A DNA stretch of 64,000 nucleotides from a virus: IMG/VR virus record IMGVR_UViG_3300009514_000017, positions 1-64,000 of that record, one strand, 5' to 3'. Made by a program: the position numbers and the translations under genes. Every line of letters begins with the position of its first letter. The first letter of the stretch is position 1. Below, piece by piece: positions 3-64,000 of the stretch. The notes under the pieces were generated by a model that was not told where the DNA came from, searched no databases, and saw only the letters and a list, made by a program, of their open reading frames with translations.

Positions 3-1067
3 AAGGATGACGAGAAGCTTCTACAACTTCTCATAGACCTGACCCCACAATCTTTCGAGACAAGGACAGTTACTGTTTCCAGAAAGATCAAGAGGACAAA
101 GAAGTCCCGAGATGTAATAGACAGAACAGCCATAAAGTCTGGAAAGAAGGTCCTCGCAGATTCTCCGTTTTCTTCAGACTCCATAGATGAGGAAACGACG
201 TTTAAGTACCAGACCGATGCACCTGCTGTTATCGGTAGGATCGAAGGGGTACTAGACAACGTACTGGTTCCAAACGGATCTGGAAAGAAGGGTATAGGAT
301 CTAAAGGTGCCCACGGAACGATAGTTGGAATCCAGATCCCGCCAGGAACCGATGTTGTTGGTCTGGTTACCAATGTCTACGAACGTGTCATCCTGTATGA
401 GAGGGTATCTAGAAAGATAGACGATATCAGTAAGCCGTTGGAGGAATTGATTAGGCCAAGTTGGGTTTCAGCGAATTACACGAACGGGTTGATCGGGAAA
501 AATATCTACAAACCGTTTTTTGGATGTGGTGCTGTGACAGATGATGTTACGGTTTCACCAGATACGTTTACAGTGACGGACCAGATCCCAGACGTATCTC
601 CTTGGTCAACAAGAGAGGTCGTCGATGCTGTCATCGGTTCGTCTTGGTCGTCTGGAAACAAGACAGTTGAGATGTCCATAAACGACATCTTTGATCGCTA
701 TGTGAAGGTGAAGAGTGAGGGATTGGACGCCAACGAGTTCATCCGGGTCCTAACAGATAGGCCGGTAGCCACGTTCGAAGACGTGCTAGGTGGAGAGTTC
801 CAGGTGAATTCCGTTGGCGGTTCCAAGACAGTGAGTCCAGTTCCGGGAAGGAGGATAGGGTTTCACTCTCTCTCGGTAGACAGTGAGTTGTCAAAAGCTG
901 GCAACCTAGCTGGACTTACTGACGATCCGCTCACAGGCAGTCAGGGTTTTGGCCTGAGTGGAAAACCACAAGTCACCAAGGCATCTTATGATGTAAGAAG
1001 GCAGAAGCTGGAAAAAGTTGAAGCCTACAGAGCAGCTCTGTCATCGGGCCCGGGGTTTGTTGGGTAG
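3..1067 (+). CDS. 5'-truncated hypothetical protein (probably virion-associated)
   Basis: The frame of the listed 438..1067 ORF is open from base 3 (KDDEKLLQLLIDLTPQ...) with no stop, so the gene begins upstream of the window. Confidence 0.75.
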   Translation, partial: KDDEKLLQLLIDLTPQSFETRTVTVSRKIKRTKKSRDVIDRTAIKSGKKVLADSPFSSDSIDEETTFKYQTDAPAVIGRIEGVLDNVLVPNGSGKKGIGSKGAHGTIVGIQIPPGTDVVGLVTNVYERVILYERVSRKIDDISKPLEELIRPSWVSANYTNGLIGKNIYKPFFGCGAVTDDVTVSPDTFTVTDQIPDVSPWSTREVVDAVIGSSWSSGNKTVEMSINDIFDRYVKVKSEGLDANEFIRVLTDRPVATFEDVLGGEFQVNSVGGSKTVSPVPGRRIGFHSLSVDSELSKAGNLAGLTDDPLTGSQGFGLSGKPQVTKASYDVRRQKLEKVEAYRAALSSGPGFVG

Positions 1068-1132
1068 TCAATGAGGTTGGCCAGGCCGTATAGTTGGGGC
1101 TGTGTACGCACTTTGCTCCTGAGAGAGACGCG

Positions 1133-1372
1133 ATGATAAATCTAGATTCCTTCGTAGACGAGCTCACCAAGATCTCTGGAGTCCCTGGTAAGGGGATGTT
1201 GGGCAGAGCCATCAAGAGCAGGCTCTTGATTGGTGGAGGTCTGGTTGGCACCGGAGCAGTTGGAGTCAAGGCTGGTGAGAGTGCGCTTGACGATTACAAG
1301 CGTGGCCGAGTCATGCGTAAGCAGCAAGAGATGCAGGAGCGAATGCAGCGGCAGATGGAGAGTTTCCGGTGA
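1133..1372 (+). CDS. small protein with FxDELxKIS N-terminal motif and Gly-rich hydrophobic segment (putative internal head/ejection protein)
   Basis: ATG at 1133 gives MINLDSFVDELTKISG; contains LLIGGGLVGTGAVGV; overlaps the next gene (GTGA). Confidence 0.7.
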   Translation: MINLDSFVDELTKISGVPGKGMLGRAIKSRLLIGGGLVGTGAVGVKAGESALDDYKRGRVMRKQQEMQERMQRQMESFR

Positions 1373-1737
1373 CGCGCTTCGAAGCTTTCGCGGACGAGTT
1401 GAGTAAGATCTCAACCATCAGTCTGTCTGGCATCTCTCCAAACAGTGTGCCCATGCGTCCTCCAGCCATGTCTACGCCGATGTCCAGCCCAACGATGTCG
1501 ATGGCTGCTCCAAAGCCTACGATGTCAATGGCTACCCCTCGTCCTGCCTCTCCTTCCAGTAGAGGTGGCGGCATGGCATCGATGGGGAAGATGGCAACTG
1601 TAACCAGTGCTGGAGCACAACTTCTAGGTTCTCAGAAGGTAGGCCGTTTCCGGAACGTCGCGACTAGCAGGATCGTTGGAAAGCGTGGTTCTACGGTTGA
1701 CGATTTGGTTCCAAAAGTCATGGGAGCAGGTTCATGA
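1369..1737 (+). CDS. low-complexity Met/Ser/Pro-rich protein with FADELSKIS motif
   Basis: MTRFEAFADELSKIS; repeated PTMSM units; coupled to both neighbours by GTGA/ATGA overlaps. Confidence 0.65.
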   Translation: MTRFEAFADELSKISTISLSGISPNSVPMRPPAMSTPMSSPTMSMAAPKPTMSMATPRPASPSSRGGGMASMGKMATVTSAGAQLLGSQKVGRFRNVATSRIVGKRGSTVDDLVPKVMGAGS

Positions 1738-2213
1738 GCAGAGTACATGAGATGATCAAGAAGGCGGCTGAAAGAGGAAAGCAGAAGACTGCTGGTATGG
1801 CCAACAGCGGTGAAGAAGTAGAACAGATGATATGGAAGCGTCGCACACGAGCGCAGACTCGAGGCGAAGCCCAGGGGTTGTTCAGCACGTCTGGTGACAC
1901 GATTGAGCAGGACAGAGCAGATCTGAAGAAGCTGTTTGTCCAGACTGATGGTGCAGAGCTTGGCGCCGGTCTGATGGACCTTCCTGCCGACCTGAAGAAG
2001 GTGTCCCACGTAGCCTCTTTCCTGGACATGGTGGAGAAGAAGGCAGGGCTCACAGAAGCTCAGAGACGCTATCCGGAGTTGCAGAAAGTATCGGAGTATA
2101 CGAGTGGCGGAGCTGAGAGGACTACCAAGACTCAGCCGCCAAAGAAGCGGGATCCAAAGGCAGCATTTGGACCCGGACCCGCCACTGCTCCAATGACAGG
2201 TGGCAGGATCTAG
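1734..2213 (+). CDS. hypothetical protein with K-x-[AS] motifs (putative head protein)
   Basis: ATGA overlap; contains IKKAA, QKTAG, LKKVS, SFLDMVEKKAG, LQKVS. Confidence 0.65.
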   Translation: MSRVHEMIKKAAERGKQKTAGMANSGEEVEQMIWKRRTRAQTRGEAQGLFSTSGDTIEQDRADLKKLFVQTDGAELGAGLMDLPADLKKVSHVASFLDMVEKKAGLTEAQRRYPELQKVSEYTSGGAERTTKTQPPKKRDPKAAFGPGPATAPMTGGRI

Positions 2214-2221
2214 AGGTTGGC

Positions 2222-3094
2222 TTGGATAGCAAGGAGCAAGCCTTCGATGAGATCATGGAGAAGCTGGCTGTTCTGAAGCCCGCTAATAGGCTGCCGTATA
2301 CTCCAGCTCTGCCTGTAATACCTAATGCACACAAACCTCTCGCCTCGATTCAAAAGCGAGAGGTAGCGATGTGGCAGGAAGCCAAGAAGTCGAACTGGGA
2401 TCCCCAATTCACCAAACCGCTGTTGCGCTCTATGGAACCTCTCATTCAGAAGAGGTCCAGCCTGTACAAGAACCGTGGCGTCGAAATCCCACATAAAGCC
2501 GTGGACTTCGAGCATAGACGCCTGGCTCTGGAAGCTATCAAGACCTACGACCCCAACAGAGGAACCAAGCTTGGAACCTGGGTGACTGGAAGATTGAAGA
2601 ACGCTTCCAAGTTCATCGGTCAGAACCAGAACACAGCAAGAATCGTCGACGCCATCTCCGCTAAGATTGGAGACTACCAGCGTTTCAAGTCTGAATTGTC
2701 AGATCAACTAGGTCGTGAACCAACAGCTCAAGAAATCCATGACAACTTGATGAAGATCGACCACGACTTCGAGAGGTTGAGGGGAACCTCTCTTCGTGAA
2801 ATTCATCGTCTGGATAAGGAGCAGCGCAAAGATCTGTTCAGCACTGGGTCTGAAATAAACATGTCGGGTGCAGCGAGAACTCTAGATTACAACAAGGAGT
2901 TGATGCACACGATCATGGATGAATTGACTCCAGAGGAAAAAAAGGTTCATGTCCTGACGATGGGACTGGAAGGAAATCCAAGATTGCCTCCAGGACAGAT
3001 AGCCCGCAGACTCCATATGGACAACTCTAAGGTGTCCAAGATTCGCACCTCCATCCTCAAGAAGATGGAGCCATACAGGGTGGATCTACTCTGA
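2222..3094 (+). CDS. sigma70-family RNA polymerase sigma factor (FliA/SigB-like architecture, divergent)
   Basis: Region 2 LEAIKTYDPNRGTKLGTW (cf. AVxxFDPxRGxKFSTY); region 3 LSDQLGREPTAQEI; region 4 ELTPEEKKVHVLTMGL...PGQIARRLHMDNSKVSKIR. Confidence 0.88.
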   Translation: MDSKEQAFDEIMEKLAVLKPANRLPYTPALPVIPNAHKPLASIQKREVAMWQEAKKSNWDPQFTKPLLRSMEPLIQKRSSLYKNRGVEIPHKAVDFEHRRLALEAIKTYDPNRGTKLGTWVTGRLKNASKFIGQNQNTARIVDAISAKIGDYQRFKSELSDQLGREPTAQEIHDNLMKIDHDFERLRGTSLREIHRLDKEQRKDLFSTGSEINMSGAARTLDYNKELMHTIMDELTPEEKKVHVLTMGLEGNPRLPPGQIARRLHMDNSKVSKIRTSILKKMEPYRVDLL

Positions 3095-3300
3095 TGTCCA
3101 GGACCTCTAGACTGGAAGCGCTGAAGCGAGATGTTAAAGCATACGTTGCTAAAGAGAAAGAGCGGATAGACAAGGACGTTGCGTTCCTTGAAGCGATATT
3201 GAGCAGCAGGACCGGCGGGCGAGGAGTTCAAGCCGTGTCTGAAACCCAAACATCCAATGGAGCGCAGCAAGATCTGGCCTCGTTTTTGAAAGATACGTGA
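3094..3300 (+). CDS. hypothetical protein
   Basis: TGATG coupling to the sigma gene; helical, charged 68 aa. Confidence 0.6.
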   Translation: MSRTSRLEALKRDVKAYVAKEKERIDKDVAFLEAILSSRTGGRGVQAVSETQTSNGAQQDLASFLKDT

Positions 3301-3330
3301 AGTGGGGATGTAGCTTAGAGGTTTAGACCT

Positions 3331-3834
3331 ATGGCAATAACATTAGAGGTTGAAAACTCATCCCCAAACAGAAACTTGGCTCTGGCGAGGTATCTCAAAA
3401 TGACTGATAAGCAAGCCACGGCTGAGGTGCTGTTGAAACTGGACGAGGTCAAGAGTGACGTCAAAGAAGTGAGAACTGAGGTTCGTCAGGTGAAAACGGA
3501 CGTCAGCTCGGTTCGAGAAGACATAGTTCAGCTGAAGACCAGATTCGAGCACCATGTTGGTGTAGAGGAGAGAGCAGACGACCACTTCTGGTCCAGGGAC
3601 TGGAAGACCTTGATTGGCGCTATCGAGAAGATCAACGATAGGCTGACAGAGGTCGAGAAGTTGAACACTATCCTGGTGGAGAGGAAGACTATCCTTGCAG
3701 ATCACGAGTCTCGGATACGGATAGTTGAGACATCTGGAATCAAAATGTCTGTCAAGCTTGCCATGATAGTTGGGGGATCTGTCTTGTTGGCTAGTGCAAT
3801 AGTTGGTCTCCTATTCAAATACCTAGAGCCATAG
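3331..3834 (+). CDS. coiled-coil protein with C-terminal transmembrane helix (holin/XhlA-like membrane protein)
   Basis: Heptad pattern VKSDVKEVRTEVRQVKTDVSSVREDI; C-terminal LAMIVGGSVLLASAIVGLLF. The start may be the downstream ATG (MTDKQ, about 3400). Confidence 0.6.
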   Translation: MAITLEVENSSPNRNLALARYLKMTDKQATAEVLLKLDEVKSDVKEVRTEVRQVKTDVSSVREDIVQLKTRFEHHVGVEERADDHFWSRDWKTLIGAIEKINDRLTEVEKLNTILVERKTILADHESRIRIVETSGIKMSVKLAMIVGGSVLLASAIVGLLFKYLEP

Positions 3835-4767
3835 ATGCCTATCGTCGACCTGCCAATACTCGTCGCAAACGTGGATACTCTGCTGGGTGCCGGTCACACA
3901 GACATCGAGATTCACGCTTCGACGGATGAGGGAAATAGCTACGAAGAGATCACCGCTTCTACTGCAACTGCTGCCATCCTGACCTCGGACGACGCAAGTA
4001 CGACTTTCCAGATTGCAGGATACACCTTGGTCTTGAAGGTCGATGGTGGCACAGAAGAGTCTGTGGTCTTCAGCTCTACTCCGCCCAATTGGACTCCAGC
4101 TCAGGTCAGGGATGAGATCAACGCTGTAGTCGCAGGGCTTGCCGCCGTCAGTGGAAGCGCAGTCGTGCTGACCTCTGGAACGACTGGTAGAGCTAGCTCC
4201 ATTGAGATCGTGTCCGGTGGAACTCCTCTAGGCTGGGATGCCGAAACCTTGGTCTACGGCAAGGACGCCAGGGTTACTTTGGTTAGTGCAACCTACAGCT
4301 ATACCTATCAGGACGCCTCTGGTTCAACTGAGTATCGCTACAAGTGGCGAACGTCTGCGGACGGGGCGAACCCTATCTCGAGCTTCTCCCTGCCAATCTA
4401 TGGTTCGGAGCCGCCTCTGATAGCCGGCGCGAATCTATCCGTGGCACAGGCTACCTTCGTTGACGTTCAGGGGAAGCCTATCAGGACGAAGATCATAGTT
4501 GGGGTCGTCAATACCCCGCAGAGTTTGAGTGGGTATATCGTTGGAATTCAAACTCCTCTGGTCTTCGAAACCGATGATAGTGGATTTGTTCAGTTCACCC
4601 TTGTTCGAGGGGCCAAGGTCAGGGTAGCTTTTGAGGGCACTCCATTCGTCAAGGAGATCACCATTCCGAATGCTGCTACCTTCAATCTCTTGACTGAGCT
4701 TGGCAACGCTCCAGACGCTTTCACGGTCCAGCAGGCCCCGACAGCTCTTGGACGCCGAGTTCTCTAG
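3835..4767 (+). CDS. virion structural protein
   Basis: Beta-rich T/S/G/A composition; the C-terminal TDDSGFVQFTLVRG..ITIPN domain is paralogous to one in 14193..15140. Confidence 0.65.
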   Translation: MPIVDLPILVANVDTLLGAGHTDIEIHASTDEGNSYEEITASTATAAILTSDDASTTFQIAGYTLVLKVDGGTEESVVFSSTPPNWTPAQVRDEINAVVAGLAAVSGSAVVLTSGTTGRASSIEIVSGGTPLGWDAETLVYGKDARVTLVSATYSYTYQDASGSTEYRYKWRTSADGANPISSFSLPIYGSEPPLIAGANLSVAQATFVDVQGKPIRTKIIVGVVNTPQSLSGYIVGIQTPLVFETDDSGFVQFTLVRGAKVRVAFEGTPFVKEITIPNAATFNLLTELGNAPDAFTVQQAPTALGRRVL

Positions 4768-4776
4768 TGAGTAATC

Positions 4777-5283
4777 TTGGGAACTACAAGATCTTGTGGT
4801 GATTGTGTAGCGTGCTGCGTCTACCCAAGCGTGGACGAAGGTGACGTCAAGCACGAGGCACTGTCACCGTGCCAGAATCTCGTCAATTACAAAAAGCTTG
4901 TTCCTAAGGTAGTAGAGGAGCAGGGACGTTTCCATGGTATGCCCATACTCTCTACGAGAAACTACCGCATTGCCGGAGGGACAAGCTGCCTCATCTACGA
5001 GAACCGACCGTCCTGTTGCAGCGCATACCGATGTGCGTGGATAAACGGCGAGGGAGATGAGGAAGACCGACCGGACAAGTGCGGTGTCGTGGTGGACGAG
5101 ATCAGCCGCACCGGCCCCATCAGGAACGCCTTGATTGCCAAGCCTCTGTGGTTCGGAGCGGAGGATGAGGAAGCGGGGGGTCGTGCGATGGAGCGAATCT
5201 CACGCTCATCCGGCGTACCCTTGCTGGTGTTGCAGTTCACTGAGTTTCGTCTGTTGCGCATCGTCGGCAGAGGAGTCGCGTAG
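4777..5283 (+). CDS. YkgJ/FliB-like CxxCxxCC Fe-S or Zn cysteine-cluster protein
   Basis: CGDCVACC ... CLIYENRPSCCSAYRCAW signature. Confidence 0.75.
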   Translation: MGTTRSCGDCVACCVYPSVDEGDVKHEALSPCQNLVNYKKLVPKVVEEQGRFHGMPILSTRNYRIAGGTSCLIYENRPSCCSAYRCAWINGEGDEEDRPDKCGVVVDEISRTGPIRNALIAKPLWFGAEDEEAGGRAMERISRSSGVPLLVLQFTEFRLLRIVGRGVA

Positions 5284-7493
5284 TGGCTACCGTCGTCGTT
5301 GCCTTCCCGTCTACGGGTGGTCGGATCGATCCCAACAACGCCGGTGAAGCCGGCGTTACGACCGGCTGGGCACTCCTCGGTGGTGGGAAGTCGCTGACGG
5401 CTGAGACCGACTTCAAGTACCAAGGCTCCTACTCGATCTCCGTCAAGGTTTCCAAGTCGCAGGGTGGGCTCAGTTTTTCGCCCACCGCAGGGATCAACTT
5501 TTCCGCTACACCGCGCACCGCGCTGCTGAAGATGTACGTCGCCACCCCTGGTCTCTTGGGATCTCTCAACTCCGGCTCCGGTCTCAATGCAGAGATGGGT
5601 AGTGGTGGTGTTCGCTCTGCTTGGTACGTCTACTACTTGGAAGGAGTCGCGACCTATCCGCGCACGCGAGCGTTCATCATCCGCGCTGTAGACCCGAACT
5701 TGGCTGCCTTCCGAGACGAGATAACCGGCAGTCCGACCCTCACGTCGGTCAACTACTTCGGCTTCGAGATGGACGACTTCGCATCAGCAAGCGCCAAGGG
5801 TCAGAACATGGCGGTTGACTCGATTGACTATGTAGAGAATGGGGCTGCATCGTTGCTGTTGACTCGTGGAGACAGCACCGATGCCGACGGCACATTCCAG
5901 CACTTTGTAGACTGGGACTTCAACACGGCGGCGAACAGTTATGGAGTGGTGATCGGTGAAAGAGGAGTTATTTTTGTCACTGGCAAGCTTGGTATTGGTG
6001 AATCTGCGACGGCAACTGAGTTCACCGACAGCCTATTCAATATAGTTTTTGCTGATGGTAAGTTCGACTCAGACTTCTCCGGAATCATTTGGGATGTATC
6101 AAACGCCAGCACTGTAATTGTAATCTCAGACGGCAGCTTTCTAGGTCGTGGCTCAGCTACGATAGTTCGGTATTTTGATACGGCATTGGATGTTGCTACC
6201 GCTACTGAGATCATAACTATCACTGGTCACGGGTTTTCAACCGCAGACTATGTGACCTACTCGAAGCAGGGCGGTTCACACGCTGTTGGACTGACAGACA
6301 CATCCAGTTACTTCGTCAACAGAATTAGCGCAGACACAATCTATCTATACGACACTAGGGCTAATGCTCTTGTTGGTGGAGCCACCGGGCGACTCGACCT
6401 AACAGTAGCTTCAGCCCCAGGAGAGTCTCACAGTCTTACCCGCAGTCCAGATACTAGACCAAATTTCGACTGGGTTGGAACAACAGCAGATGCGGTCACT
6501 GAAGATGGTATCATCTATAACAATGTCAAAGAGTTGACGCTGTCCTCCGCTGTAACTATGACGAGGAACAAATTTATCCAAGCGTCCAAGATATTTGCGA
6601 ATGTTGGAACTCCATCACTTGCAAACTGCACATTCTCCGATTCAATTTTGGACGAGGGCAGTAACCTTATTCTTGTAGCAGACTTGGCTGTCCTATCTGG
6701 GTGTACTTTCGTAGCGTCTGACGATGGCCACGCTGTAAAACTCGCCTCAGCGGCAGGAACCCCATTCACTTGGAATCACGAACATTCTGGCTATTGGGCT
6801 CCAGCAGACAATGGTTGGAACTTTTCAACGGCACAGGCGTTTACGTCTGAGCAGATCAACTTCGATGCTAACCATGGTTTCACGACCGGGGACGCGGTGT
6901 TCTACAACCGTGAAGGCGGAAGCGCGAGCATTGGTCTTGGTACTACCGATGACGTCAAGTATTATGTGAACGTCGTTGACTCTGACACTGTAACGGTTCA
7001 TGCCACTAAGACCGCTGCAATTGCTGGAAGCAGTGCTATAAATCTAACAACCAGTGGTTCAGAGACTCACAGTCTCTACAGTGGTAAGGCCACGTTGTGG
7101 AACAACTCTGGTGGTTCAATTACAGTGAACGTGTCAGGTGGGGTGACTTTCCCATCTATTAGAAATGGGGCCAACTCAAGTACCCTCGTCCAGTCAACCG
7201 TCACATTGAAGGTGACAGTCAAAGACGTTGGTGGAAATCCAATTGAGAACGCGCAAACTGCTATCTATCTAGCTGCCAGCCCATACACCCAGTTGATGAA
7301 TGAGGACACTCTATCTTCTGGAATTGCACAGGAGGAAGTGGACATAGCTGCATCAACAGCAGTTTCAGTACGAGTTCGAAAGGGTGATACTGGATTCACC
7401 AAGTACATTCCAGTAAATTCTCCACAGACTACCACCGCTACAGGCTTGGACATCACCATCACTCTCGAAGTCGATACCAACAACAACTCTTAG
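5283..7493 (+). CDS. tail fibre/virion decoration protein with two HGFxTGD repeat domains
   Basis: Repeats ITITGHGFSTADYVTY...GLTDTSSYFVN and INFDANHGFTTGDAVFY...VKYYVN; C-terminal Ig/carboxypeptidase-regulatory-like TVKDVGGNPIENA. Confidence 0.7.
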   Translation: MATVVVAFPSTGGRIDPNNAGEAGVTTGWALLGGGKSLTAETDFKYQGSYSISVKVSKSQGGLSFSPTAGINFSATPRTALLKMYVATPGLLGSLNSGSGLNAEMGSGGVRSAWYVYYLEGVATYPRTRAFIIRAVDPNLAAFRDEITGSPTLTSVNYFGFEMDDFASASAKGQNMAVDSIDYVENGAASLLLTRGDSTDADGTFQHFVDWDFNTAANSYGVVIGERGVIFVTGKLGIGESATATEFTDSLFNIVFADGKFDSDFSGIIWDVSNASTVIVISDGSFLGRGSATIVRYFDTALDVATATEIITITGHGFSTADYVTYSKQGGSHAVGLTDTSSYFVNRISADTIYLYDTRANALVGGATGRLDLTVASAPGESHSLTRSPDTRPNFDWVGTTADAVTEDGIIYNNVKELTLSSAVTMTRNKFIQASKIFANVGTPSLANCTFSDSILDEGSNLILVADLAVLSGCTFVASDDGHAVKLASAAGTPFTWNHEHSGYWAPADNGWNFSTAQAFTSEQINFDANHGFTTGDAVFYNREGGSASIGLGTTDDVKYYVNVVDSDTVTVHATKTAAIAGSSAINLTTSGSETHSLYSGKATLWNNSGGSITVNVSGGVTFPSIRNGANSSTLVQSTVTLKVTVKDVGGNPIENAQTAIYLAASPYTQLMNEDTLSSGIAQEEVDIAASTAVSVRVRKGDTGFTKYIPVNSPQTTTATGLDITITLEVDTNNNS

Positions 7494-7503
7494 ATAGGAC
7501 TCT

Positions 7504-7710
7504 TTGCAAATGAGTGAGGAATCGAAGAAGCTGGTCAATCAGCCCGTGACCATCGACGTCAAGTTCATCATCGATGGCATGAACATAGTAGTTGAAACTC
7601 CGTGGGCAACTTCGGTGATGCCGACCGAGAAGGCAGTGAACATGGTCCTGGCTTACGGTTCACTGCACTGGAAGGAACCGCAAATCCCGGAATCTACTTC
7701 GGAAAACTGA
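7504..7710 (+). CDS. hypothetical protein
   Basis: Fills the gap between two structural genes on the operon strand. Confidence 0.5.
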   Translation: MQMSEESKKLVNQPVTIDVKFIIDGMNIVVETPWATSVMPTEKAVNMVLAYGSLHWKEPQIPESTSEN

Positions 7711-7808
7711 GTCCTCGTCACTGACACTTGAGTGGCACTATTCTCACTAAGACTGAACCGTGCCAGATCACTGGCTTATAGACGTACAAGAACAGGTGGG
7801 CCCACACG

Positions 7809-11762: not shown

Positions 11763-11800
11763 GCTACGATCCCGTCGGGCCTTCCCGACGGGATCGTGGC
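11763..11800 (+). terminator. strong intergenic stem-loop (terminator or mRNA-stabilising hairpin)
   Basis: gctacgatcccgtcggg-cctt-cccgacgggatcgtggc, a 17-bp stem with one G-U; only a weak U-tract follows. Confidence 0.55.
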
Positions 11801-23899: not shown

Positions 23900-23932
23900 T
23901 CGTTGACCCTCCAGTCTGCTGACCAATATACT
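23900..23932 (+). promoter_or_regulatory. sigma70-like promoter TCG-TTGACC-N18-TATACT
   Basis: -35 at 23903-23908, -10 at 23927-23932; same architecture at 53617 and 59649. Confidence 0.65.
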
Positions 23933-53616: not shown

Positions 53617-53649
53617 TCGTTGACTGTAGACTATCCAGCTGCCTACACT
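53617..53649 (+). promoter_or_regulatory. sigma70-like promoter TCG-TTGACT-N18-TACACT
   Basis: -35 at 53620-53625, -10 at 53644-53649, 12 nt before the ATG at 53662. Confidence 0.65.
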
Positions 53650-54796: not shown

Positions 54797-55030
54797 ATGG
54801 AGACTGTATCTCTCCACTCTTTTGCAGATGAGCTTCAGCAGATCTTGGAGAAGGATGCGGGACTCAAGGATTTTTTCATCCGAAAGGTTGCACCTGAGTC
54901 CAGCAAGAGGTTAGCTAGAACAAAAGTCGTATCAAACATCACTGGAGCTTTTCCTAGATCAGTCAAGCCGGTTAAACCGATAGACATGGGTGATACGTGG
55001 TTGGCAAAAGCTGGACTTCGACCTGCGTAG
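54797..55030 (+). CDS. small protein with SFADEL..EKDAG motif
   Basis: ATG at 54797, 1 nt after the previous stop; METVSLHSFADELQQILEKDAG. Confidence 0.65.
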   Translation: METVSLHSFADELQQILEKDAGLKDFFIRKVAPESSKRLARTKVVSNITGAFPRSVKPVKPIDMGDTWLAKAGLRPA

Positions 55031-55037: not shown

Positions 55038-55970
55038 ATGAACCAGCCAGAGATCGAATTCTACAAGCGCTTGACTGAATTCGTTCCGACTGCTCCTACT
55101 GAAGGCAGTCCTGTAGAGGAACGTTTCAAGGCTGTTCCAGATTACAAGATCCCAGTTAGCCCTAAGAACCTCTTCACTCATCAGGAAATCCACCCCATCG
55201 TTCTAGACCTATCTCTACTAAAGGCTTTCGGTGAGGAGTGGTACTACTGGGAAGTTCCGACTCTGTGGAAGTCCATCCACGACGAGTTCAAGTCCAAGGT
55301 GTCGGAGTCGAACAGAGCCAAGATCAACGCTGTAAGAACTGCAAGAATCACCACCCTACCGTGGGATAGCTGGCACGTTTTCGAGAATGTGGTACTAGCA
55401 CTAGATGGATTTGTTCCACGGTGGGACATCCTACAGAAAGTAGATCTTGAGTCACTGTTCGTAGGAGTGGACATCCTGGAGCAGATCAGACCTGAGGACT
55501 ATTCGGAAGATGTCCGCAACTACATAGCTGCTGTCTTCTTGGATGATGATGTCTTCTTCACCCCTCCACCACTAGAGTTTTCACAGGCAGAAGTCTCGCA
55601 GCCCTATTACCTTTGCAAGGATTGTGGAAATGAGGAGTGGGCGCTACATCACGATGGCATCTGCTCCGTGTGCTCTGGTAGATACGATCCAGAGAACGGT
55701 TTGTCGATGCGGCCTTCCCAAGAAGCCATAGACAAGAAGCTCGGGCAGAACACCGTGTTACGATACAAGTTCGACCCTGGGCCTGAGCAGAGAGTCTGGG
55801 ATCTAGTGGCCAGGTCCAAGAATGAGCAGTCGATTTTGAAGGTGGCTGGTCCAGCAGAGATAGGTGTGTCAAAGCTGCTGGATGCTAGAGACCTCATGAA
55901 CATCAGGCGCAGACAGCTCAAGAACCAGCTGACCGCTCTCAAGTCTTGGCTGAACTCGAGGTCTTCATGA
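55038..55970 (+). CDS. hypothetical protein with Zn ribbon
   Basis: CKDCG...CSVCSG. Confidence 0.7.
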   Translation: MNQPEIEFYKRLTEFVPTAPTEGSPVEERFKAVPDYKIPVSPKNLFTHQEIHPIVLDLSLLKAFGEEWYYWEVPTLWKSIHDEFKSKVSESNRAKINAVRTARITTLPWDSWHVFENVVLALDGFVPRWDILQKVDLESLFVGVDILEQIRPEDYSEDVRNYIAAVFLDDDVFFTPPPLEFSQAEVSQPYYLCKDCGNEEWALHHDGICSVCSGRYDPENGLSMRPSQEAIDKKLGQNTVLRYKFDPGPEQRVWDLVARSKNEQSILKVAGPAEIGVSKLLDARDLMNIRRRQLKNQLTALKSWLNSRSS

Positions 55971-56503
55971 TTGATTATTCAGCCTTCACTGATGAGCTGG
56001 AGAAGATTGGTGGAGTAGGAACCTTTCTTCAGAAACAGATCAAAAACGTTGGCAACACGATTAATGACTTTGCTAATCCCATAAAATCCATGAAGGCTGG
56101 ATGGGAGTCTGGTGCTGCCGGTAGATCGTTTGGTGGATGGGGCGGTAAGCTACTGACAGACAAAAATAAGCCGTCGTTCTGGCGTCATCTACCTGTAGGA
56201 CCCAAGGCTCAGATAACAGGCTTTACTGCACTTGAAGCTCCAGGCGCCCTCGCCAAAGAAGACCCTAGTGGCGAGGGGCGATCTCGTCTGCGTCGTGTAT
56301 CTGGAACCCTTGGTGGGACCGGAGGTTTTTTGGTCGGTGGTAGACATGGACTCCTTGGCTCTCTGGTTGGTGGAGCCATTGGCCAGAAGATGTTGAGTGG
56401 GTCTGTAGGATTAGGGGAGAGCACTGTAGAAGCTGTCAAGCAACTCAAACGTCAGAGAAAGTTTAATGCATTGAATACAACGCAGACCCCCGTGGGGCCG
56501 TAA
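55967..56503 (+). CDS. glycine-zipper protein with AFTDELEKIG motif (putative ejection/membrane-channel protein)
   Basis: ATGA overlap; GTLGGTGGFLVGG..GLLGSLVGGAIG. Confidence 0.65.
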   Translation: MIDYSAFTDELEKIGGVGTFLQKQIKNVGNTINDFANPIKSMKAGWESGAAGRSFGGWGGKLLTDKNKPSFWRHLPVGPKAQITGFTALEAPGALAKEDPSGEGRSRLRRVSGTLGGTGGFLVGGRHGLLGSLVGGAIGQKMLSGSVGLGESTVEAVKQLKRQRKFNALNTTQTPVGP

Positions 56504-58509
56504 TGTCGTCAGATCTAGACTTCTACAACTCCCTGTCTGGCGTATCCAGATTCTCTGGTGTTCGTGGTCGGCTCTCGCAAGGTGGGTCGTTTCCAGCTCG
56601 CTATCCATCCCCATTCTTCGATCTCGGTCATACTTGGCTACCACACTCGATTGGCAAGCTGCATCAGTGGTGCCGCTACTATTACCTAGTCAATCCACTG
56701 ATCAATGCCGTCATTCACAAGATGGCGGAATATCCAATCACTGAGATTGTCGTCAACGAGGTAAACAAGACCACCAAGGAAAAGTGGGAGCACATTCTAG
56801 GACAGCATCTTCGTATTCGTGCGTTCCAGGTAGAAGCTGGCCTCGACTACTTCACTTACGGGATCTGCATTATCACGATGCACTTCCCATTCGAGAAGTA
56901 TCTCGCTTGCACGAACTGCAAGTTCGAGGACAAGGCCAGCAACCTCAAGTACAAGTGGCGCAACCTGAACTACATCCTTCGTTGTCCCAAGTGTGACCAC
57001 GAGGGGCCAACCAAGGTTCGAGACCAGTACCTGAAGGACTTCCGTCGAATCAGGTTGATGAGATGGAATCCAGAGTACGTCTACATAGAGCAGGGGTTTG
57101 CTGGCGCGGAGCCCATCTACACTTTTATGGTTCCGAAGGGTCTCAAAAACGAGATCATGATGGGCAAGACCCGCGTTCTCAACACGGTTCCAGATATCTA
57201 CATTGAAGCGTTGAAGCGCAACAGGAATATAGCGTTCGCTCCAGAGAACATGTTCGTGATGAAGCGGCCAATCATCTCTCAGAGAGAGACGGGTTGGGGT
57301 ATGCCTCTCATCCTTCCTGTTCTGAAGGACGCTTTCTACCTTCAGATCTTGCGCAAGTCTCAGGAAGCTATAGCTTCTGAGCATATCGTTCCACTTCGTG
57401 TTCTGTTCCCTCAGGCAGGAAGCGGAACGAGCGATCCATATACCTCAATCCCAATTGAGTCTTGGAGGTCCCGTATAGAGCGTGAGATCACCAAGTGGAA
57501 GTACGACCCAAACTACATTCCTGTTCTTCCTCTACCTATTGGGTCTCAGTCCATTGGTGGAGATCAGAAAGCTTTGAATCTGCACCAGGAGATCAGCCTC
57601 TGGTCTGAGCAGATCGTTGCAGGAATGGGAGTGCCGAGAGAGTTCGTGTTCGGCGGCCTTACATTCTCTGGCTCCAACGTGTCGATGAGGATGTTGGAGA
57701 ACGCTTTCATCAACTACCGTATCGACCAAGACAACCTCTTGAATGAGTTCATCATCAGGAGAGTTGCAGACTACATGGGTTGGCCATCGGTGCGCGTATC
57801 TATGCGCAAGTTCAAGATGGCAGACGATCTACAGAGGATGAGCTTCCAGTTCCAGCTCAACCAGGCAATGAAGATCTCAGACGAGTCTCTGTTGAAGGAA
57901 TGCGACCACGATCCAGTAGTTGAGAAGGAGCGCAAGGAGCGTGAGGTTGGAGCTCAACTCGAGTACCAGCGCAAGATGCAGCTATCACAGGCTGAGACTC
58001 AGGGTCAGATGTTGCTTGTTCAGTCTCGCTATCAGGCTGCTGCCCAAAGCATGTTGGCTCCGGCTATGCCTGTGCAGCCTGGAGCTCAACAGGGTGCAGC
58101 ACAGCTCGGTGGCCAGCAGGGTGAGATGGTTTCAGGAGACCAACTTGGAATTCCTGGAGTTCCTGGTGACGTTTCTGTCTCTCCAGAGAATGCTCAACAG
58201 CAGCCAGTTGAAGGAGTTCCGACTGAAGCTCAGAGTCCTCTCAGCATGAACACACAGGGTGCTGGGATAGACATTAGGTACGTTGCTAAGAGGGTACTGG
58301 CTCAAATCCAGAAGCTGTATGCCCAAGATCCACAGCAGGCGAACATGAAGCTTGAGGAGATCAGGGCATCCAATCCACAGCTATATAGTCTTCTCATCCA
58401 GATGGCTAACAGTAGGGTTGGCTCTCAAACCGATCCACTAAATCCGGTTCAGTCTCCGCAGCCACAGGTGAAGCCACCTCGTAGCCCCAAGTCTCCAGCG
58501 GCTGCGTGA
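56503..58509 (+). CDS. portal protein with Zn-ribbon insertion and Q/P-rich C-terminus
   Basis: YYLVNPLINAVIHKMAEYP; GWGMPLI; IVAGMGVPREFVFGG...SNV; size and architecture fit large-phage portals. Confidence 0.75.
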   Translation: MSSDLDFYNSLSGVSRFSGVRGRLSQGGSFPARYPSPFFDLGHTWLPHSIGKLHQWCRYYYLVNPLINAVIHKMAEYPITEIVVNEVNKTTKEKWEHILGQHLRIRAFQVEAGLDYFTYGICIITMHFPFEKYLACTNCKFEDKASNLKYKWRNLNYILRCPKCDHEGPTKVRDQYLKDFRRIRLMRWNPEYVYIEQGFAGAEPIYTFMVPKGLKNEIMMGKTRVLNTVPDIYIEALKRNRNIAFAPENMFVMKRPIISQRETGWGMPLILPVLKDAFYLQILRKSQEAIASEHIVPLRVLFPQAGSGTSDPYTSIPIESWRSRIEREITKWKYDPNYIPVLPLPIGSQSIGGDQKALNLHQEISLWSEQIVAGMGVPREFVFGGLTFSGSNVSMRMLENAFINYRIDQDNLLNEFIIRRVADYMGWPSVRVSMRKFKMADDLQRMSFQFQLNQAMKISDESLLKECDHDPVVEKERKEREVGAQLEYQRKMQLSQAETQGQMLLVQSRYQAAAQSMLAPAMPVQPGAQQGAAQLGGQQGEMVSGDQLGIPGVPGDVSVSPENAQQQPVEGVPTEAQSPLSMNTQGAGIDIRYVAKRVLAQIQKLYAQDPQQANMKLEEIRASNPQLYSLLIQMANSRVGSQTDPLNPVQSPQPQVKPPRSPKSPAAA

Positions 58510-59648: not shown

Positions 59649-59681
59649 TCGTTGACCTAATCAGCACCTGACCTGTACTCT
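59649..59681 (+). promoter_or_regulatory. sigma70-like promoter TCG-TTGACC-N18-TACTCT upstream of the RNAP gene
   Basis: -35 at 59652-59657, -10 at 59676-59681. Confidence 0.6.
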
Positions 59682-59756
59682 CAGCATCGTCCAGGCTCGA
59701 AAACCCAAGGCGCTGGGTAGAGCCTCTCTTCACCGAGCGCGTCTTAGGTGAGGTAC

Positions 59757-62700
59757 ATGGCACGCATATCCCCGACTGAGGTCTTTGATGGCCTCAAGAA
59801 AAACACAGTCGAGTCCATCAAGTCCTACTTCCCGTTTGAAGAGGGAGGTAAGAGGCTTGAGGTCGAAGACGTTTGGGTCGATGACAAACTGGACGTCAAC
59901 GATATTCAATCACAACAGAAGGCCAAGCTCGATGACAAGACCTGGGGTGTAAAGGTCAAAGCCAAGATGAAGCTCACCGATATCAAGACCGGCAAGGTCT
60001 TGGATCGAGCTACGTCCAGTGTGGCCACTCTGCCGAAGATGACGAATCGCTTCGGCTACATCGTTGGTGGAAACGAGTATCAGGTAGACAATCTCTTCAG
60101 ATTGAAGAGCGGTGTCTACACCCGAATCCAGAACAACGGCGAGTTGGAGTCTGAATTCAACTTGGCCAAGAGCCCTGTGGGTGGTCGCGGGTTCTCGGTC
60201 CACTTCGATCCAGAACGCAAGAAATTCTCGCTTCTCTACAAGACAGCCAAGATTCCACTCCTCCCAATCCTCAAGAGCATGGGGATGGCAGACGATGACA
60301 TCAAGAAGAACTGGGGCAAGGAGATCTACGAGGCGAACTCCCCCAAGTCTCAGAAGGCTTATGACCAAGCACTGTTGGATTTCCAGACCAAGACCAGTGG
60401 AGATGCCACGTTCAAAGGGTCGAAAGATCCTAAGGAGTACATCAAGGAGTTCTTTCATCAGTCTGAGTTGCGACCAGACACGACCTCCATCACTCTAGGA
60501 AAGCCATTCGATAGAGTGAGCCACGAGGTTCTATCGATTGCAGCCAACAAGGTTCTCGGTGTGTCTCGAGGAACCAACGAGCCTGACGACCGTGACAGTC
60601 TGGCGTTCAAGGAAATCACCTCCACCGAGGACTTCATTCCAGAGAAGATCGAGAGGTCTGCTAGGGCTATCCGGGGCAAGCTTCGTCAGACTATGGGGAG
60701 GAAAGACAAGATCAAGGAGATTATCCCTTCCGGTGAAAGAGGTCTGTTTGGTCAGCCAGTACATGACTTCTTTACCAAGGGCGGGTCTGTTGCTGAGTTG
60801 TCTGACCAGACCAACCCATTGCAGATCTTGTCTGCACATCGCAAGACTACCTTGATGTCAGAGCAGTTCGGCGGCATGAAGTCCGAACACTCTCTCACCC
60901 CAGAGATGAAGGTGGTCAACCCTAGCCACATAGGGTTCCTTGACGTGATGAAGACTCCCGAAAGCAGTCGCTCGGGTATCACCGTCAATCTATCGCTACA
61001 GGCACAGAAGAGAGGTAAGGAGCTCGAGGCTCCTGTCTTTGATCTGAAGTCAAAGAAGTTGAAGTACGTCTCAGCCCACGAGTTTCATGGACGCAATTCT
61101 GTATTGCCAGACCAAGTCAAATGGGTTGATGGCAAGCCGGTGCCTATAGCCAGCCGTGTCAAGATGAAGGTCGTTGGCGGGGCGATAGAAGAGCGTCCGT
61201 GGACCGACGCAGATTCTGTAATGCCAACTGCCAAGGGCATGTTTGACTTCACCTCGAACATGATTCCTTTCTTGCCGTCAGACCAGGGCAACCGTGTGTC
61301 GATGGCAGATAAGCAGATGGAGCAGGCTATTAGCCTGAAGCATCGAGAAGCTCCACTCGTTCAGACCAAGACCGAGAAGGAAAAGACGTTCGACAAGGTG
61401 TTGGGAAACTTTGCCTCTCAGAGATCACCCGTTGCCGGGAAAGTAACCGCAGTTAGAGGTAATCAGGTTACGGTCAAGGACGCGAAGAACAAGAGTCATA
61501 ATGTCCACTTGTACGATCACTTCCCTACCAATGACCCAAAGGGAATGTTCCATTCCGAATCGTCTGTGAAGGTCGGAGACCATGTCTCAAAAGGCGATAC
61601 TCTGGCGGATACCAACTTCACAAAGGGTGGAAACCTAGCACTTGGAACCAACCTCCGAGTTGGTTACGTGCCATTCAAGGGCTACAACTTCGAAGACGGT
61701 GTCGTCGTATCTGAGACGGCATCTAAGAAGTTGACCTCCGAACATCTGTACAAAGAGTCACTATCTGTGTCCCCAAACGATGGGGATCGTATTGACAAGA
61801 ATAGATTTGTTGCGGTGGCCAAGCGCAAGATCGCTCAGATGCAGCCAGGAGAGCTGGACGCCATTGGTAGTGATGGTGTGGTCCGCGTTGGTTCACATGT
61901 TCAACCAGGTCAGGTGTTGGTTACTGCGGTTGGTAAAAGCAACCTGGACAAGAGAGATCATGCTCTAGGTTCATTCGGTCGTAGAGCCATGTCATTGGAG
62001 AAGGACAAGTCTCTGGTTTGGAACCACTCCAGTCCTGGAAAGGTGGTTCGTGTAGTCAAGAGCCCTAATGGTAAAGAGATAAAGGTTCACGTCAAGACTG
62101 AGGAACCTTTGGTCGTCGGCGATAAGGTGGCCGGACGCCACGGTAACAAGGGCATCGTCACTAAGATTCTTCCCGATGACGAGATGCCATTTACTGTTGA
62201 TTCTAAGACCAAGGAGAAGAGGCCCATACACGTCCTTCTCAACCCGACCGGCGTGCCTTGCTACGACGATAAGACTGAATTCTTGACCGACACTGGATGG
62301 GTTCAAGCTCCCAAGATCCATGAAGAGCATCGGTTCGCTACGATCAACCCGAAAACTCTAACTCTTGAATTCCAAGATCCAGAGGAGGTTTACCACATAC
62401 CTTACACGGGTAAGATGTACAGGATTCAGAACCAGCAGCTTGACCTACTAGTTACTCCTCACCACAAGCAGTTCACTGCCAAGAGAGGGAACCAGAAGCT
62501 GTATGGAGCGTTGGATTTAGATGACCAGGAGCTTCCGTCTCTGTTTTCATTGGATGAAGCACAGGAAATCATAGGCCAACCAAGGCGGTATCTAAAGGCT
62601 GCTAAGTGGAAAGGTGATAGCGCGGCTTTCTACTATATAGAGCCTGGAACTTACGCTGGAGTAGGGCCTAAGCCTACTCATGGAATGAACATCCCAGCAT

Positions 62701-64000
62701 CTATCTGGGCTGAGTTCATGGGATGGTTCTTGTCTGAAGGAAGCACGTACTTCAACAAGGCTAACTACAGCTACGTTACAGAGATTTCCCAAGACAAGAA
62801 TGTAAATCCAGAAAACTATGATCGCATTCGTACGGTCATGGAATTCTTTGGGCTTACGTTGGAGGAGACGGACTCTGGTATTCGCGTTAAGCACAAGGGC
62901 TTATTTGAACGACTGGCTTTGTTGGGTAAGGCTCGAGAGAAGTATATTCCTAGAGAGATCTTGGACATGGAGCCACGGCATTTAAGGCTATTCCTAGATG
63001 CTGCTGTACGAGGTGATGGATCTGAGACTTGGGATGCAGAGACGGGTCACTACGGTAACAAGAAGTATTGGACTGCTTCTAAAAGGTTGGCTGATGGGAT
63101 TCAGGAAGTAGCTGCCAAGCTTGGAATTGCAGCCAATATAAAGCGTGAGAGTCGTAGAGGTGATGACGCTTGCTACTACATTTCTTTGAGTGGGAGTCGT
63201 TTAGCGCCATGGGTAAATTGGTCATCAACGACTAAGTCTAACCAGGTTGAAGAGTGGGAGGACTACGACGGAGTAGTTCACTGCGCTACAGTTCCGAACG
63301 GAACTCTCTTGGTTCGTAGGAATGGAAAGGCAGTCTTCAGCGGGAATACAAGAATCAACGTTGGTCAGGTTCTAGAGACAGCAGCAGGGAAGATTGCTGA
63401 GAAGACTGGTAAGCCTTTCATAGTCGACAACTTTGGTGACCCCAAGTCCAACAATCGCAAGATGGTAGCGGATGCTCTTAAGGCACACGGGCTCACTGAT
63501 GAAGAAGATGTCTACGACCCGAGCAATGTGAAGAAGCCAATCGGTTCCGTCCTGGTTGGTCCACAGCACATACTCAAGTTGCAGCACCAGGTTGAAAAGA
63601 AGCTTACCTCCCGTGGTGGTTCAACTACTGCTGGTGGAGCTGGACTCAAGTTCGACAGTGACAGGCAGCCACAGAAGGGTGGGGAGCACGGGTCTCAGGG
63701 ATTTGGTCAGCTGGAACTCTACTCGTTGCTTGCACATGGGGCCAAGCACAACATCCGTGAGTTTGCCACGTACAAGTCCGACGAACAGAATGAGCAGTTC
63801 TGGGCGCAACTACAGTCCGGTAGAGAGCCGCCACCTCCAAAGGTGCCATTCGCTTACAACAAGTTTGAAGCTCTCCTAAAGGGGTTGGGTGTCAATGTAG
63901 AGAAGCATGGAACTGAGATTCAACTTCTACCATCAACAGACAGGCAGACTATTGCTGCTGCTGGTGGAGCGTCTGGGGAATTGAAGAAAGCCAACTTGAC
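59757..64000 (+). CDS. rpoB: multisubunit-type RNA polymerase beta subunit, intein-containing, apparently fused to beta-prime (3'-truncated)
   Basis: ATG at 59757 after GAGGT; open to the window end. Motifs: LPKMT..GYIVGGNE, DQTNPL, TPES..SG, IPFL..DQGNR..M..KQM.QA, GYNFEDG, GDKVAGRHGNKG, LNPTGVP|TRINVGQ, LKL.H.V..K, LLKGLGVNVE, then IQLLPST..TI....GELKK. Confidence 0.93.
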   Translation, partial: MARISPTEVFDGLKKNTVESIKSYFPFEEGGKRLEVEDVWVDDKLDVNDIQSQQKAKLDDKTWGVKVKAKMKLTDIKTGKVLDRATSSVATLPKMTNRFGYIVGGNEYQVDNLFRLKSGVYTRIQNNGELESEFNLAKSPVGGRGFSVHFDPERKKFSLLYKTAKIPLLPILKSMGMADDDIKKNWGKEIYEANSPKSQKAYDQALLDFQTKTSGDATFKGSKDPKEYIKEFFHQSELRPDTTSITLGKPFDRVSHEVLSIAANKVLGVSRGTNEPDDRDSLAFKEITSTEDFIPEKIERSARAIRGKLRQTMGRKDKIKEIIPSGERGLFGQPVHDFFTKGGSVAELSDQTNPLQILSAHRKTTLMSEQFGGMKSEHSLTPEMKVVNPSHIGFLDVMKTPESSRSGITVNLSLQAQKRGKELEAPVFDLKSKKLKYVSAHEFHGRNSVLPDQVKWVDGKPVPIASRVKMKVVGGAIEERPWTDADSVMPTAKGMFDFTSNMIPFLPSDQGNRVSMADKQMEQAISLKHREAPLVQTKTEKEKTFDKVLGNFASQRSPVAGKVTAVRGNQVTVKDAKNKSHNVHLYDHFPTNDPKGMFHSESSVKVGDHVSKGDTLADTNFTKGGNLALGTNLRVGYVPFKGYNFEDGVVVSETASKKLTSEHLYKESLSVSPNDGDRIDKNRFVAVAKRKIAQMQPGELDAIGSDGVVRVGSHVQPGQVLVTAVGKSNLDKRDHALGSFGRRAMSLEKDKSLVWNHSSPGKVVRVVKSPNGKEIKVHVKTEEPLVVGDKVAGRHGNKGIVTKILPDDEMPFTVDSKTKEKRPIHVLLNPTGVPCYDDKTEFLTDTGWVQAPKIHEEHRFATINPKTLTLEFQDPEEVYHIPYTGKMYRIQNQQLDLLVTPHHKQFTAKRGNQKLYGALDLDDQELPSLFSLDEAQEIIGQPRRYLKAAKWKGDSAAFYYIEPGTYAGVGPKPTHGMNIPASIWAEFMGWFLSEGSTYFNKANYSYVTEISQDKNVNPENYDRIRTVMEFFGLTLEETDSGIRVKHKGLFERLALLGKAREKYIPREILDMEPRHLRLFLDAAVRGDGSETWDAETGHYGNKKYWTASKRLADGIQEVAAKLGIAANIKRESRRGDDACYYISLSGSRLAPWVNWSSTTKSNQVEEWEDYDGVVHCATVPNGTLLVRRNGKAVFSGNTRINVGQVLETAAGKIAEKTGKPFIVDNFGDPKSNNRKMVADALKAHGLTDEEDVYDPSNVKKPIGSVLVGPQHILKLQHQVEKKLTSRGGSTTAGGAGLKFDSDRQPQKGGEHGSQGFGQLELYSLLAHGAKHNIREFATYKSDEQNEQFWAQLQSGREPPPPKVPFAYNKFEALLKGLGVNVEKHGTEIQLLPSTDRQTIAAAGGASGELKKANL
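62259..63347 (+). mobile_element. intein with LAGLIDADG homing endonuclease (363 aa) in RNAP beta
   Basis: Starts CYDDKTEFLT; block B LLVTPHH; endonuclease motifs FMGWFLSEGS and FLDAAVRGDGS; ends VHCATVPNGTLLVRRNGKAVFSGN, then +1 Thr. Removing it restores NPTGVP-TRINVGQ (cf. NPLGVPSRMNIGQ). Confidence 0.93.

Follow-up and report, generated by a model that had tools for sequence, protein, structure and literature searches.

The window analyzed here covers the initial 64 kb of an IMG/VR virus record with a length of 75,790 bp. CheckV gives a completeness of 40% for this record, so the complete phage genome should be ~190 kb long. The plus strand blocks carry the virion genes and the RNA polymerase (RNAP), and a minus strand block at 36.5–53.5 kb carries the remaining genes. 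No tRNA gene is present in the 64-kb window. Near the left end lies the gene of a sigma-70-family protein, and its subdivision and the other features discussed below are collected in Table 1. The N-terminus of the sigma protein reads MDSKEQAFDEIMEKLA. Its TTG is the earliest start codon in frame and has GAGG 5 bases upstream, and the next in-frame ATG has no ribosome-binding site within usable distance. All strings quoted from this protein in the first-pass annotation (AFDEIMEKLA, WVTGR and DNSKVSKIR) are found at the residues given in Table 1. The product of the 68-aa ORF that overlaps the sigma stop codon is a possible partner of sigma.

Only seven relatives of this sigma are found in a large protein database within the searched length range. 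IMG/VR holds 40 related sigma loci, most of them on contigs of 120–205 kb. In the GenBank phage collection the best match is gp10 of Salmonella phage Arash, which carries a sigma factor annotation and shows 26% identity (E 1e-10); the proteins of the Vibrio phages D69, D148 and D181 are also among the best matches. One full sigma is present in each of four complete genomes and in Arash. In the clade, which comprises phages of ~180–205 kb, the gene thus belongs to the single-copy core.

The position of sigma is constant in all relatives, in one late virion-gene block. Upstream of sigma, an ORF homologous to window positions 3–1067 is kept in 10 loci; downstream, homologs of 3835–4767, 14193–15140, 18095–18739 and 18736–23637 are kept in 7–17 loci. 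The ORFs 18095–18739 and 18736–23637 match D69 gp13 and gp14. These correspond to gp12 and gp13 of Arash, both of them virion proteins by mass spectrometry (PMC10585845). Arash gp10 and D69 gp11 occupy the position equivalent to that of the present sigma, among proteins detected in Arash virions. Giant fibre-like proteins matching tail-spike PHROGs lie further downstream, and the portal gene is 53 kb away from the sigma gene. The homologs of the neighbors, the tail-spike matches and the distant portal together place sigma in a late tail/baseplate-side virion block, so the earlier description of the gene as sitting among putative head genes has to be corrected. When every window protein is compared by tblastn with the searched parts of the Arash and D69 genomes, only sigma, the portal, the RNAP and three weak tail-side matches are found. 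Matches to Arash are limited to sigma, the portal and the RNAP. PHROGs and Pfam searches with the large neighbors and the 53–75 kb block recognize almost nothing, and among these proteins no capsid protein, protease or scaffold.

Table 1. Positions of the sigma gene, its parts and other features, numbered from the first base of the window
Feature	Position	Strand	Remarks
79-aa protein	1133..1372	+	strict tag; N-terminal SFVDELTKIS, then Gly-rich hydrophobic segment
122-aa protein	1369..1737	+	strict tag; N-terminal AFADELSKIS
159-aa protein	1734..2213	+	internal weak copy SFLDMVEKKAG, 10 bits
Sigma-70-family gene	2222..3094	+	290 aa, TTG start; PHROGs, family profile, AF2, Foldseek
Acidic amphipathic N-terminal leader helix	2231..2272	+	residues 4–17; AF2 helix, pLDDT ~70
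Tag-like AFDEIMEKLA	2240–2269	+	residues 7–16, within leader helix
Pro-rich disordered linker	2273..2338	+	residues 18–39; nearest relatives only
Sigma regions 1.2–2.4	2339..2626	+	residues 40–135; include region 2.2 helix predicted to dock beta'
WVTGR	2579–2593	+	residues 120–124, within regions 1.2–2.4
Sigma region 3 and 3.2 linker	2651..2854	+	residues 144–211; Pfam, profile alignment, AF2
Sigma region 4 helix-turn-helix	2870..3082	+	residues 217–287; profile alignment, AF2
DNSKVSKIR	3020–3046	+	residues 267–275, within region 4
68-aa ORF overlapping sigma stop codon	3094..3300	+	downstream of sigma in 5 relatives too
Promoter-like TCG-TTGACC-N18-TATACT	23900..23932	+	59 nt before first gene of plus strand block
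Promoter-like TCG-TTGACT-N18-TACACT	53617..53649	+	ahead of portal-side block
77-aa protein	54797..55030	+	strict N-terminal tag
178-aa protein	55967..56503	+	strict N-terminal tag; directly upstream of portal
Portal protein	56503..58509	+	32.5% identity to Arash portal Gp204, E 1e-77
Promoter-like TCG-TTGACC-N18-TACTCT	59649..59681	+	ahead of RNAP gene
Single-chain beta-beta' RNA polymerase gene	59748..64000, on to record base 68636	+	two inteins

Sigma regions and promoter-reading residues

The sigma ORF matches phrog_351 of PHROGs, 'RNA polymerase sigma factor', with an E-value of 1.8e-12. The family profile, an alignment of 35 sequences, matches solved RpoS, SigA and RpoD chains with E-values from 9e-20 to 1e-15; profile positions 27–246 align with RpoS 88–326 (E 9e-20) and span regions 1.2 through 4.2. 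The AF2 model of sigma is all-helical with a mean pLDDT of 85.7, and helices 257–263 and 268–287 of region 4 are modeled with pLDDT above 90. The top PDB matches of this model in Foldseek are sigma chains only, the best being 5ipl_F (E 1.6e-7), and in BFVD the model matches phage sigmas. The single sequence is below both Pfam cut-offs, with 17.8 bits for region 2 (cut-off 24) and 17.5 bits for region 3 (cut-off 25.3). It approaches no cut-off of a curated cellular subfamily in NCBIfam, where the best score is 43.9 bits vs 384.5. The protein is almost certainly a genuine, although very divergent, member of the sigma-70 family with regions 1.2–4, and regions 2, 3 and 4, as recognized in the first-pass annotation, are confirmed by the span of the profile and by the exclusive match to sigma chains.

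The HMM alignment puts GTWVTGRLKNA of sigma opposite STYATWWIRQT of RpoS. As WVTGRLKNA faces YATWWIRQT, the W433/W434 dyad is gone, in agreement with what had been noticed at first sight. The aromatic residues of region 2.3 that serve in melting are exchanged (Y430 to W, W433 to G, W434 to R). As a consensus of the family, this region reads T-H/W-V-x-x-x-L, and the dyad is missing family-wide. In sigma-70 numbering, Q437 is replaced by N and T440 by S in this sigma. The exchanges in region 4.2 are R584 to N, E585 to S, R588 to S and Q589 to K, again in sigma-70 numbering. According to the alignment, the substitutions in regions 2.3/2.4 and 4.2 hold across the whole sigma family. From these residues it can fairly be inferred that the phage sigma has an altered promoter specificity.

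The phage RNA polymerase and its probable pairing with sigma

The RNAP gene follows immediately after the portal block, an arrangement also seen in Arash. The ORF at 59748–68636 encodes 2,962 aa with Rpb2 domains 2, 3, 6 and 7 followed by Rpb1 domains 1–5, and it is interrupted by two intein/homing-endonuclease inserts. Arash (OQ632216.1; PMC10585845) resembles the present phage in its orthologous sigma, the position of sigma in a virion block, the portal-then-RNAP layout and the bacterial type of its RNAP. The Arash enzyme is split, with beta and the N-terminal part of beta' in Gp206 and the C-terminal part of beta' in Gp216, whereas here both subunits are in one chain with inteins.

The N-terminus of RNAP beta is present in 26 of the 41 records that hold sigma, and in all 12 of those with a completeness of at least 90%. 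For beta', the N-terminus is present in all 18 records searched, 11 of 11 near-complete records included. The identities of sigma and RNAP co-vary (Spearman 0.78, n = 26); this shows only the shared vertical descent of core genes and nothing more.

A complex was modeled from sigma residues 40–290 and the N-terminus of the phage beta' (399 aa, up to NADFDGD), with a separate alignment per chain. The complex model has a score of 0.72, compared with 0.01 for the best of 3 controls, and receives the verdict 'supports binding'. The mark for this verdict is reached by 58 of 80 solved complexes and by 2 of 110 mismatched pairs, counts that are only a rough reference because own alignments were used. 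Between the runs at least 56% of the contacts agree, and the pLDDT of the partner is at least 70. In the modeled interface, the region 2.2 helix of sigma (residues 88–103) lies on the coiled coil of beta' (residues 185–232), which is the canonical contact between sigma2 and the clamp helices. Since the sigma/beta' interface is a textbook one and like complexes are already solved, this pass may reflect memory. A structure prediction of sigma with the phage RNAP, against the host core, had been suggested in the first-pass annotation. In the model sigma is placed on the phage beta' with docking surfaces that appear to be retained, but the model does not discriminate the phage core from the host core.

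We consider sigma to be most likely the partner of the phage's own RNAP. The earlier reading of the gene as a non-housekeeping sigma gains support, as does its location in one of the late virion-gene blocks of an RNAP-encoding phage. In reviews, large phages are described either as having multisubunit RNAPs without sigma homologs or as having sigmas without an RNAP. Against this two-group split, the present clade holds both RNAP and sigma in every near-complete genome examined. SPO1 gp28 and gp33/34, T4 gp55 and the sigmas of RNAP-less jumbo phages are similar in belonging to the sigma-70 superfamily and in their altered promoter specificity. They differ in that those phages have no RNAP of their own and make the sigma during infection, whereas here a sigma encoded among virion genes accompanies an RNAP in 12 of 12 genomes. 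The virion RNAPs of phiKZ-like/SPN3US phages (multisubunit), N4 and crAss-like phages are packed in the head, ejected, and give early transcription that is independent of the host. They are also encoded among late/virion genes, but they have no sigma-70-family subunit. The phiKZ-type enzymes in addition consist of 4–5 very divergent polypeptides, while the present enzyme matches cellular beta and beta' collinearly. With one catalytic chain and one sigma, the system is compact, apparently self-sufficient and of bacterial type, and it would offer a minimal sigma-dependent RNAP for biochemistry.

Terminal tag and sigma leader

In its strict form, [SAG]-F-x-D-E-L-x-K-I-[SAG], the tag is both real and portable. 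A search of the 75.8-kb record with the strict motif F-x-[DN]-E-[LIM]-x-[KQE] gives 8 copies, of which 7 are on the plus strand. Five strict tags are located at residues 3–6 of small proteins, with gene starts at 1133, 1369, 54797, 55967 and 75015, and two copies are located at C-termini, one in a 146-aa Gly-rich protein and one in a LigD-phosphoesterase/ligase. We call the tag portable because the tag-stripped proteins are mutually dissimilar (best E 0.13). Three tagged proteins had been reported to precede sigma; this is correct for the two strict copies (starts 1133 and 1369), but the copy in the third protein (1734–2213) is weak and internal. The complete relative G001 has 8 tag copies, all near the N-termini of small plus strand proteins. 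Within the 20-kb loci, the tag is confined to the nearer subclade, where most copies are in small ORFs that immediately precede sigma; loci L018–L043, Arash and D69 have none. As a feature at the termini of otherwise unrelated proteins, the strict tag may lead to a cargo-sorting signal, independently of sigma. An interpretation of the tag as a motif that binds the sliding clamp, like that of T4 gp55/gp33, was considered and rejected as unlikely: the tag would form an i/i+4/i+7 amphipathic helix and is carried by small Gly-rich proteins of the virion blocks.

One similar case is the capsid-targeting sequence of T4, which is carried by IPI-III and Alt and is removed by the gp21 prohead protease. 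PMC9026906 and PMC10052503 (reference 30) also describe it. The T4 sequence and the present tag are both short extreme N-terminal peptides common to unrelated small proteins among virion genes. The two peptides differ in sequence, the tag here is also found at C-termini, and its version on sigma is degenerate.

A tag matrix (PSSM) was built from 33 true tags, which score 32–39 bits. The N-terminus of sigma scores 4.5 bits on this matrix and ranks 14th of 966 ORF N-termini. At the 4.5-bit level the shuffled proteome gives 2.9 hits, and the chance at the single N-terminus of sigma is ~0.004. The 'variant of the tag' claimed for sigma is a weak resemblance, and with 4.5 bits compared with 32–39 bits it is at noise level proteome-wide. 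On the same matrix, the sigma leader of the nearest complete relative is undetected, and no segment of the RNAP scores above 6 bits. The sigma orthologs of the nearer subclade have a leader of their own, an acidic amphipathic helix that ends with L-[EQ]-K-x-[AGS] and is followed by a variable linker; only this ending is in common with the true tag (L-x-K-I-[AGS]). In the AF2 model the leader helix 4–17 is separate from the sigma body, on the disordered linker 18–39. The sigmas of Arash and D69 are different. They start at the conserved D-L-x-L-W region and have neither leader nor linker, and F-x-DEL-x-KI tags are absent from these phages altogether. By whatever route Gp10 comes to be in particles, it therefore does so without a tag. 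Another subclade has the leader GMPSILGD, which was considered as a shared tag and rejected, since it occurs only in sigma in the 20-kb loci.

That the sigma leader acts as a capsid-loading tag seems doubtful to us. The leader could instead be a regulatory element, a minimal autoinhibitory peptide of the region 1.1 type or a helix docking a partner such as the 68-aa product of 3094–3300, and carry no capsid-loading signal. This reading, which we hold just as tentatively, agrees with the separate consensus that sigma leaders follow, [DE]-x-[FWL]-L ... L-[EQ]-K-x-A, in which the invariant F-x-D-E-L-x-K-I is missing. It also agrees with the different leader of the other subclade (GMPSILGD..P.PFS), seen in no neighboring protein, and with the translational coupling of the 68-aa ORF to sigma, conserved in relatives. 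However, the leader is far shorter than the region 1.1 domain. Its position, helical character and L-x-K-x-[AGS] ending are those of the true tags, a resemblance with the low chance value given above, and sigma comes after two strictly tagged genes in one operon. A cleavage after K-x-[AGS], the ending common to tags and sigma leaders, is our conjecture.

Probable packaging of sigma in the virus particle

Particles of Arash purified on a sucrose gradient were analyzed by LC-MS (PMC10585845). For Gp10, the 'RNA polymerase sigma factor', 467 spectra and 24 unique peptides are listed, and its coverage is 100% (PMC10585845). The RNAP chain Gp206 was the most detected protein with 3,516 spectra, and Gp216 and the helicase Gp217 are also listed (PMC10585845). 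The first-pass annotation knew of no described case of a packaged sigma; the Arash paper does list sigma and RNAP in particles, although it offers no interpretation of this. Besides Arash, our literature searches gave no other virion sigma. The spectra per residue were recomputed with the gene lengths of the Arash record; sigma reaches 2.0, Gp206 2.3, Gp216 2.0 and Gp217 2.4. In comparison, the values of the portal, the tail tube and the capsid protein are 1.5, 1.4 and 4.3, and those of RNR alpha and dNMP kinase are 0.87 and 0.59. In the number of unique peptides sigma is 15th of 116, and primase, ligase, UDG and the helicases have 2–3. The counts fit a stoichiometric set of sigma, RNAP and helicase in the preparation, a stoichiometry that is only suggestive because the Arash spectral counts are compressed (MCP 4.3 per residue vs 1.5 for the portal).

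In the same preparation 116 of 252 proteins were detected, with RNR, primase, ligase and UDG among them, and carry-over is raised as another explanation by the authors of the study (PMC10585845). With so many proteins of this kind detected, carry-over from the lysate is a real alternative. Sigma, co-transcribed with late genes, would then initiate for the phage RNAP and drive middle/late transcription in the cell, and it would be a non-virion protein that was detected in Arash as the carry-over of an abundant late product. Each genome has one sigma and one RNAP, so the same pair must also work during infection, and the weak statistics of the sigma leader as a tag suit this reading as well. We regard it as unlikely nevertheless. 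Gp10 has 24 unique peptides compared with 2–11 for replication enzymes, and per residue it has as many spectra as the RNAP chains and more than the portal or the tail tube. Moreover, the genes of sigma and RNAP are inside virion-gene blocks in every relative, which is the pattern of known virion RNAPs. By analogy with the Arash ortholog, packaging of sigma together with the phage RNAP is probably the best reading, and we lean slightly towards a sigma that is both packaged and delivered.

The explanation that we prefer has several steps. The sigma would be the cognate subunit of the phage's single-chain beta-beta' RNAP. Its region 2.2 would dock on the clamp helices of the phage beta', and the altered regions 2.3/2.4 and 4.2 would read phage-specific promoters. 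It would be made late and enclosed in the particle with the RNAP, as in Arash, and in the next cell it would start early transcription without host RNAP. The N-terminal helix and linker, which only the nearer relatives have, may aid capsid loading; this is the weakest step. We give the whole sequence of a cognate sigma that is made late, packaged and delivered about an even chance. The fuller version, in which the particle carries a complete sigma-dependent holoenzyme and, in the tag-bearing subclade, the degenerate-tag leader brings the untagged polymerase into the capsid, is speculative and seems to us rather unlikely. Arash, the only clade member with proteomics, shows sigma and RNAP in the particle. 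Delivery of both together with the DNA, if it takes place, would explain host-independent early transcription in a group of widespread environmental phages, and a particle holoenzyme, if true, would be the first virus-delivered transcription machine with a true sigma factor.

A further observation speaks against the preferred explanation of a packaged cognate sigma: all clear promoter-like sites are of the host sigma-70 type in appearance. Three intergenic sites of the form TCG-TTGAC[CT]-N18-TA[TC][AT]CT are located 45–99 nt before the first genes of plus strand blocks (Table 1). The 8-mer TCGTTGAC is enriched, with 17 matches vs 2.8 expected. This enrichment is a coding effect because 10 of the 11 genic plus strand copies are in one frame (xTC-GTT-GAC), and only the three intergenic copies are promoter-like. 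Counts of 10–12-mers in the record and the complete relative G001 give no long conserved promoter. The candidate sites resemble host sigma-70 promoters, judged by their sequence, while the residues with which sigma-70 reads the -35 element are missing from the phage sigma. One possibility is that the late genes are transcribed by host RNAP, in an N4-like scheme.

A classical phage sigma that redirects the host core in the manner of SPO1 gp28/gp34 or T4 gp55, next to a phage RNAP that works without sigma, would agree with these sigma-70-like sites, with the RpoS/RpoD-like character of regions 1.2–4 and with the reviews, in which phage sigmas act on the host core and phage multisubunit RNAPs have no sigma, but it is improbable given that sigma and phage RNAP co-occur in all near-complete genomes, that the phage beta' retains the clamp coiled coil on which the model docks sigma region 2, that the residues reading the -10 and -35 elements differ from those of sigma-70, and that the conservation of sigma across the clade matches that of RNAP and portal. 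In G001, a similar promoter-like site precedes the RNAP gene. The same genome additionally has a 108-aa region-2-like fragment.

Downstream neighbour of sigma and closure of the operon

The gene of the divergent sigma-70-family protein is followed directly by a 68-aa ORF, whose start falls on the final nucleotide of sigma's stop codon (features and coordinates are listed in the table). This one-base overlap suggests that the two are translationally coupled. The ORF is kept immediately 3′ of sigma in five relatives and has no family match in Pfam, PHROGs or NCBIfam; its product may act as a partner of sigma or as an anti-sigma factor. Further along the virion operon, a Cys-rich protein shows a sub-threshold match to a CxxCxxCC Zn/Fe-chelating domain and also matches phrog_9155. 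The perfect GC-rich hairpin lies within a 131-nt gap 3′ of the 1,309-aa gene, and is probably the terminator closing the sigma-containing operon.

Features of the virion operon, RNA polymerase and C-terminally tagged proteins
Feature	Window	L055 (record)	Strand	Remark
68-aa ORF	3094-3300		+	start on last base of sigma stop codon
Cys-rich protein, 168 aa	4777-5283		+	inside virion operon
Hairpin GATCCCGTCGGG...CCCGACGGGATC	about 11770-11800		+	perfect, GC-rich
Single-chain beta-beta′ RNAP, 2,962 aa	59748-64000, continuing	748-9636 (59748-68636)	+	
146-aa Gly-zipper protein		13695-14135 (72695-73135)		C-terminal tag
LigD 3′-phosphoesterase + ATP-dependent ligase		14171-15553 (73171-74553)		C-terminal tag

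A repeated 8-mer

The 8-mer TCGTTGAC occurs 17 times between window positions 4457 and 59902, against 2.8 copies expected, and 14 of these copies are on the + strand. The copies were rejected as a promoter set, since 10 of the 11 genic + strand copies share one reading frame, xTC-GTT-GAC (x-Val-Asp). These in-frame copies are mostly within large virion-block proteins. The enrichment is coding bias.

Single-chain RNA polymerase and its inserts

The RNAP is interrupted by two intein/homing-endonuclease inserts. The first carries a Hom_end match near residues 1109–1168, while the second (residues 2065–2279) combines LAGLIDADG and Intein_splicing matches and begins with Gln directly after NADFDGD. 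In Salmonella phage Arash, by contrast, the enzyme is split: gp206 spans beta together with the N-terminal portion of beta′, whose C-terminal portion is covered by gp216.

Sigma leaders and tags at other positions

The sigmas of the related loci L030, L032, L035, L037 and L038 (about 9890-10040, + strand) have a conserved N-terminal leader, K-G-M-P-S-I-L-G-D-x-P-x-P-[FY]-S. These sigmas belong to a more distant subclade, and their leader differs from that of the window sigma; it was not seen on the neighbouring proteins in these 20-kb loci. A second sigma-like ORF (G001:C1:10953-11201, − strand, 108 aa) in a complete relative genome aligns with the sigma profile solely across region 2 (E 8e-9).

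In the ligase and the 146-aa protein, the F-x-DEL-x-KI tag is C-terminal instead of N-terminal. A tag-like segment, YPGSDDELAKIVVQ, is also found internally, at residue 252 of a 451-aa protein (window 44985-46340, − strand); it scores 15 bits, and no other tag-like match lying beyond the + strand blocks exceeds 11 bits.
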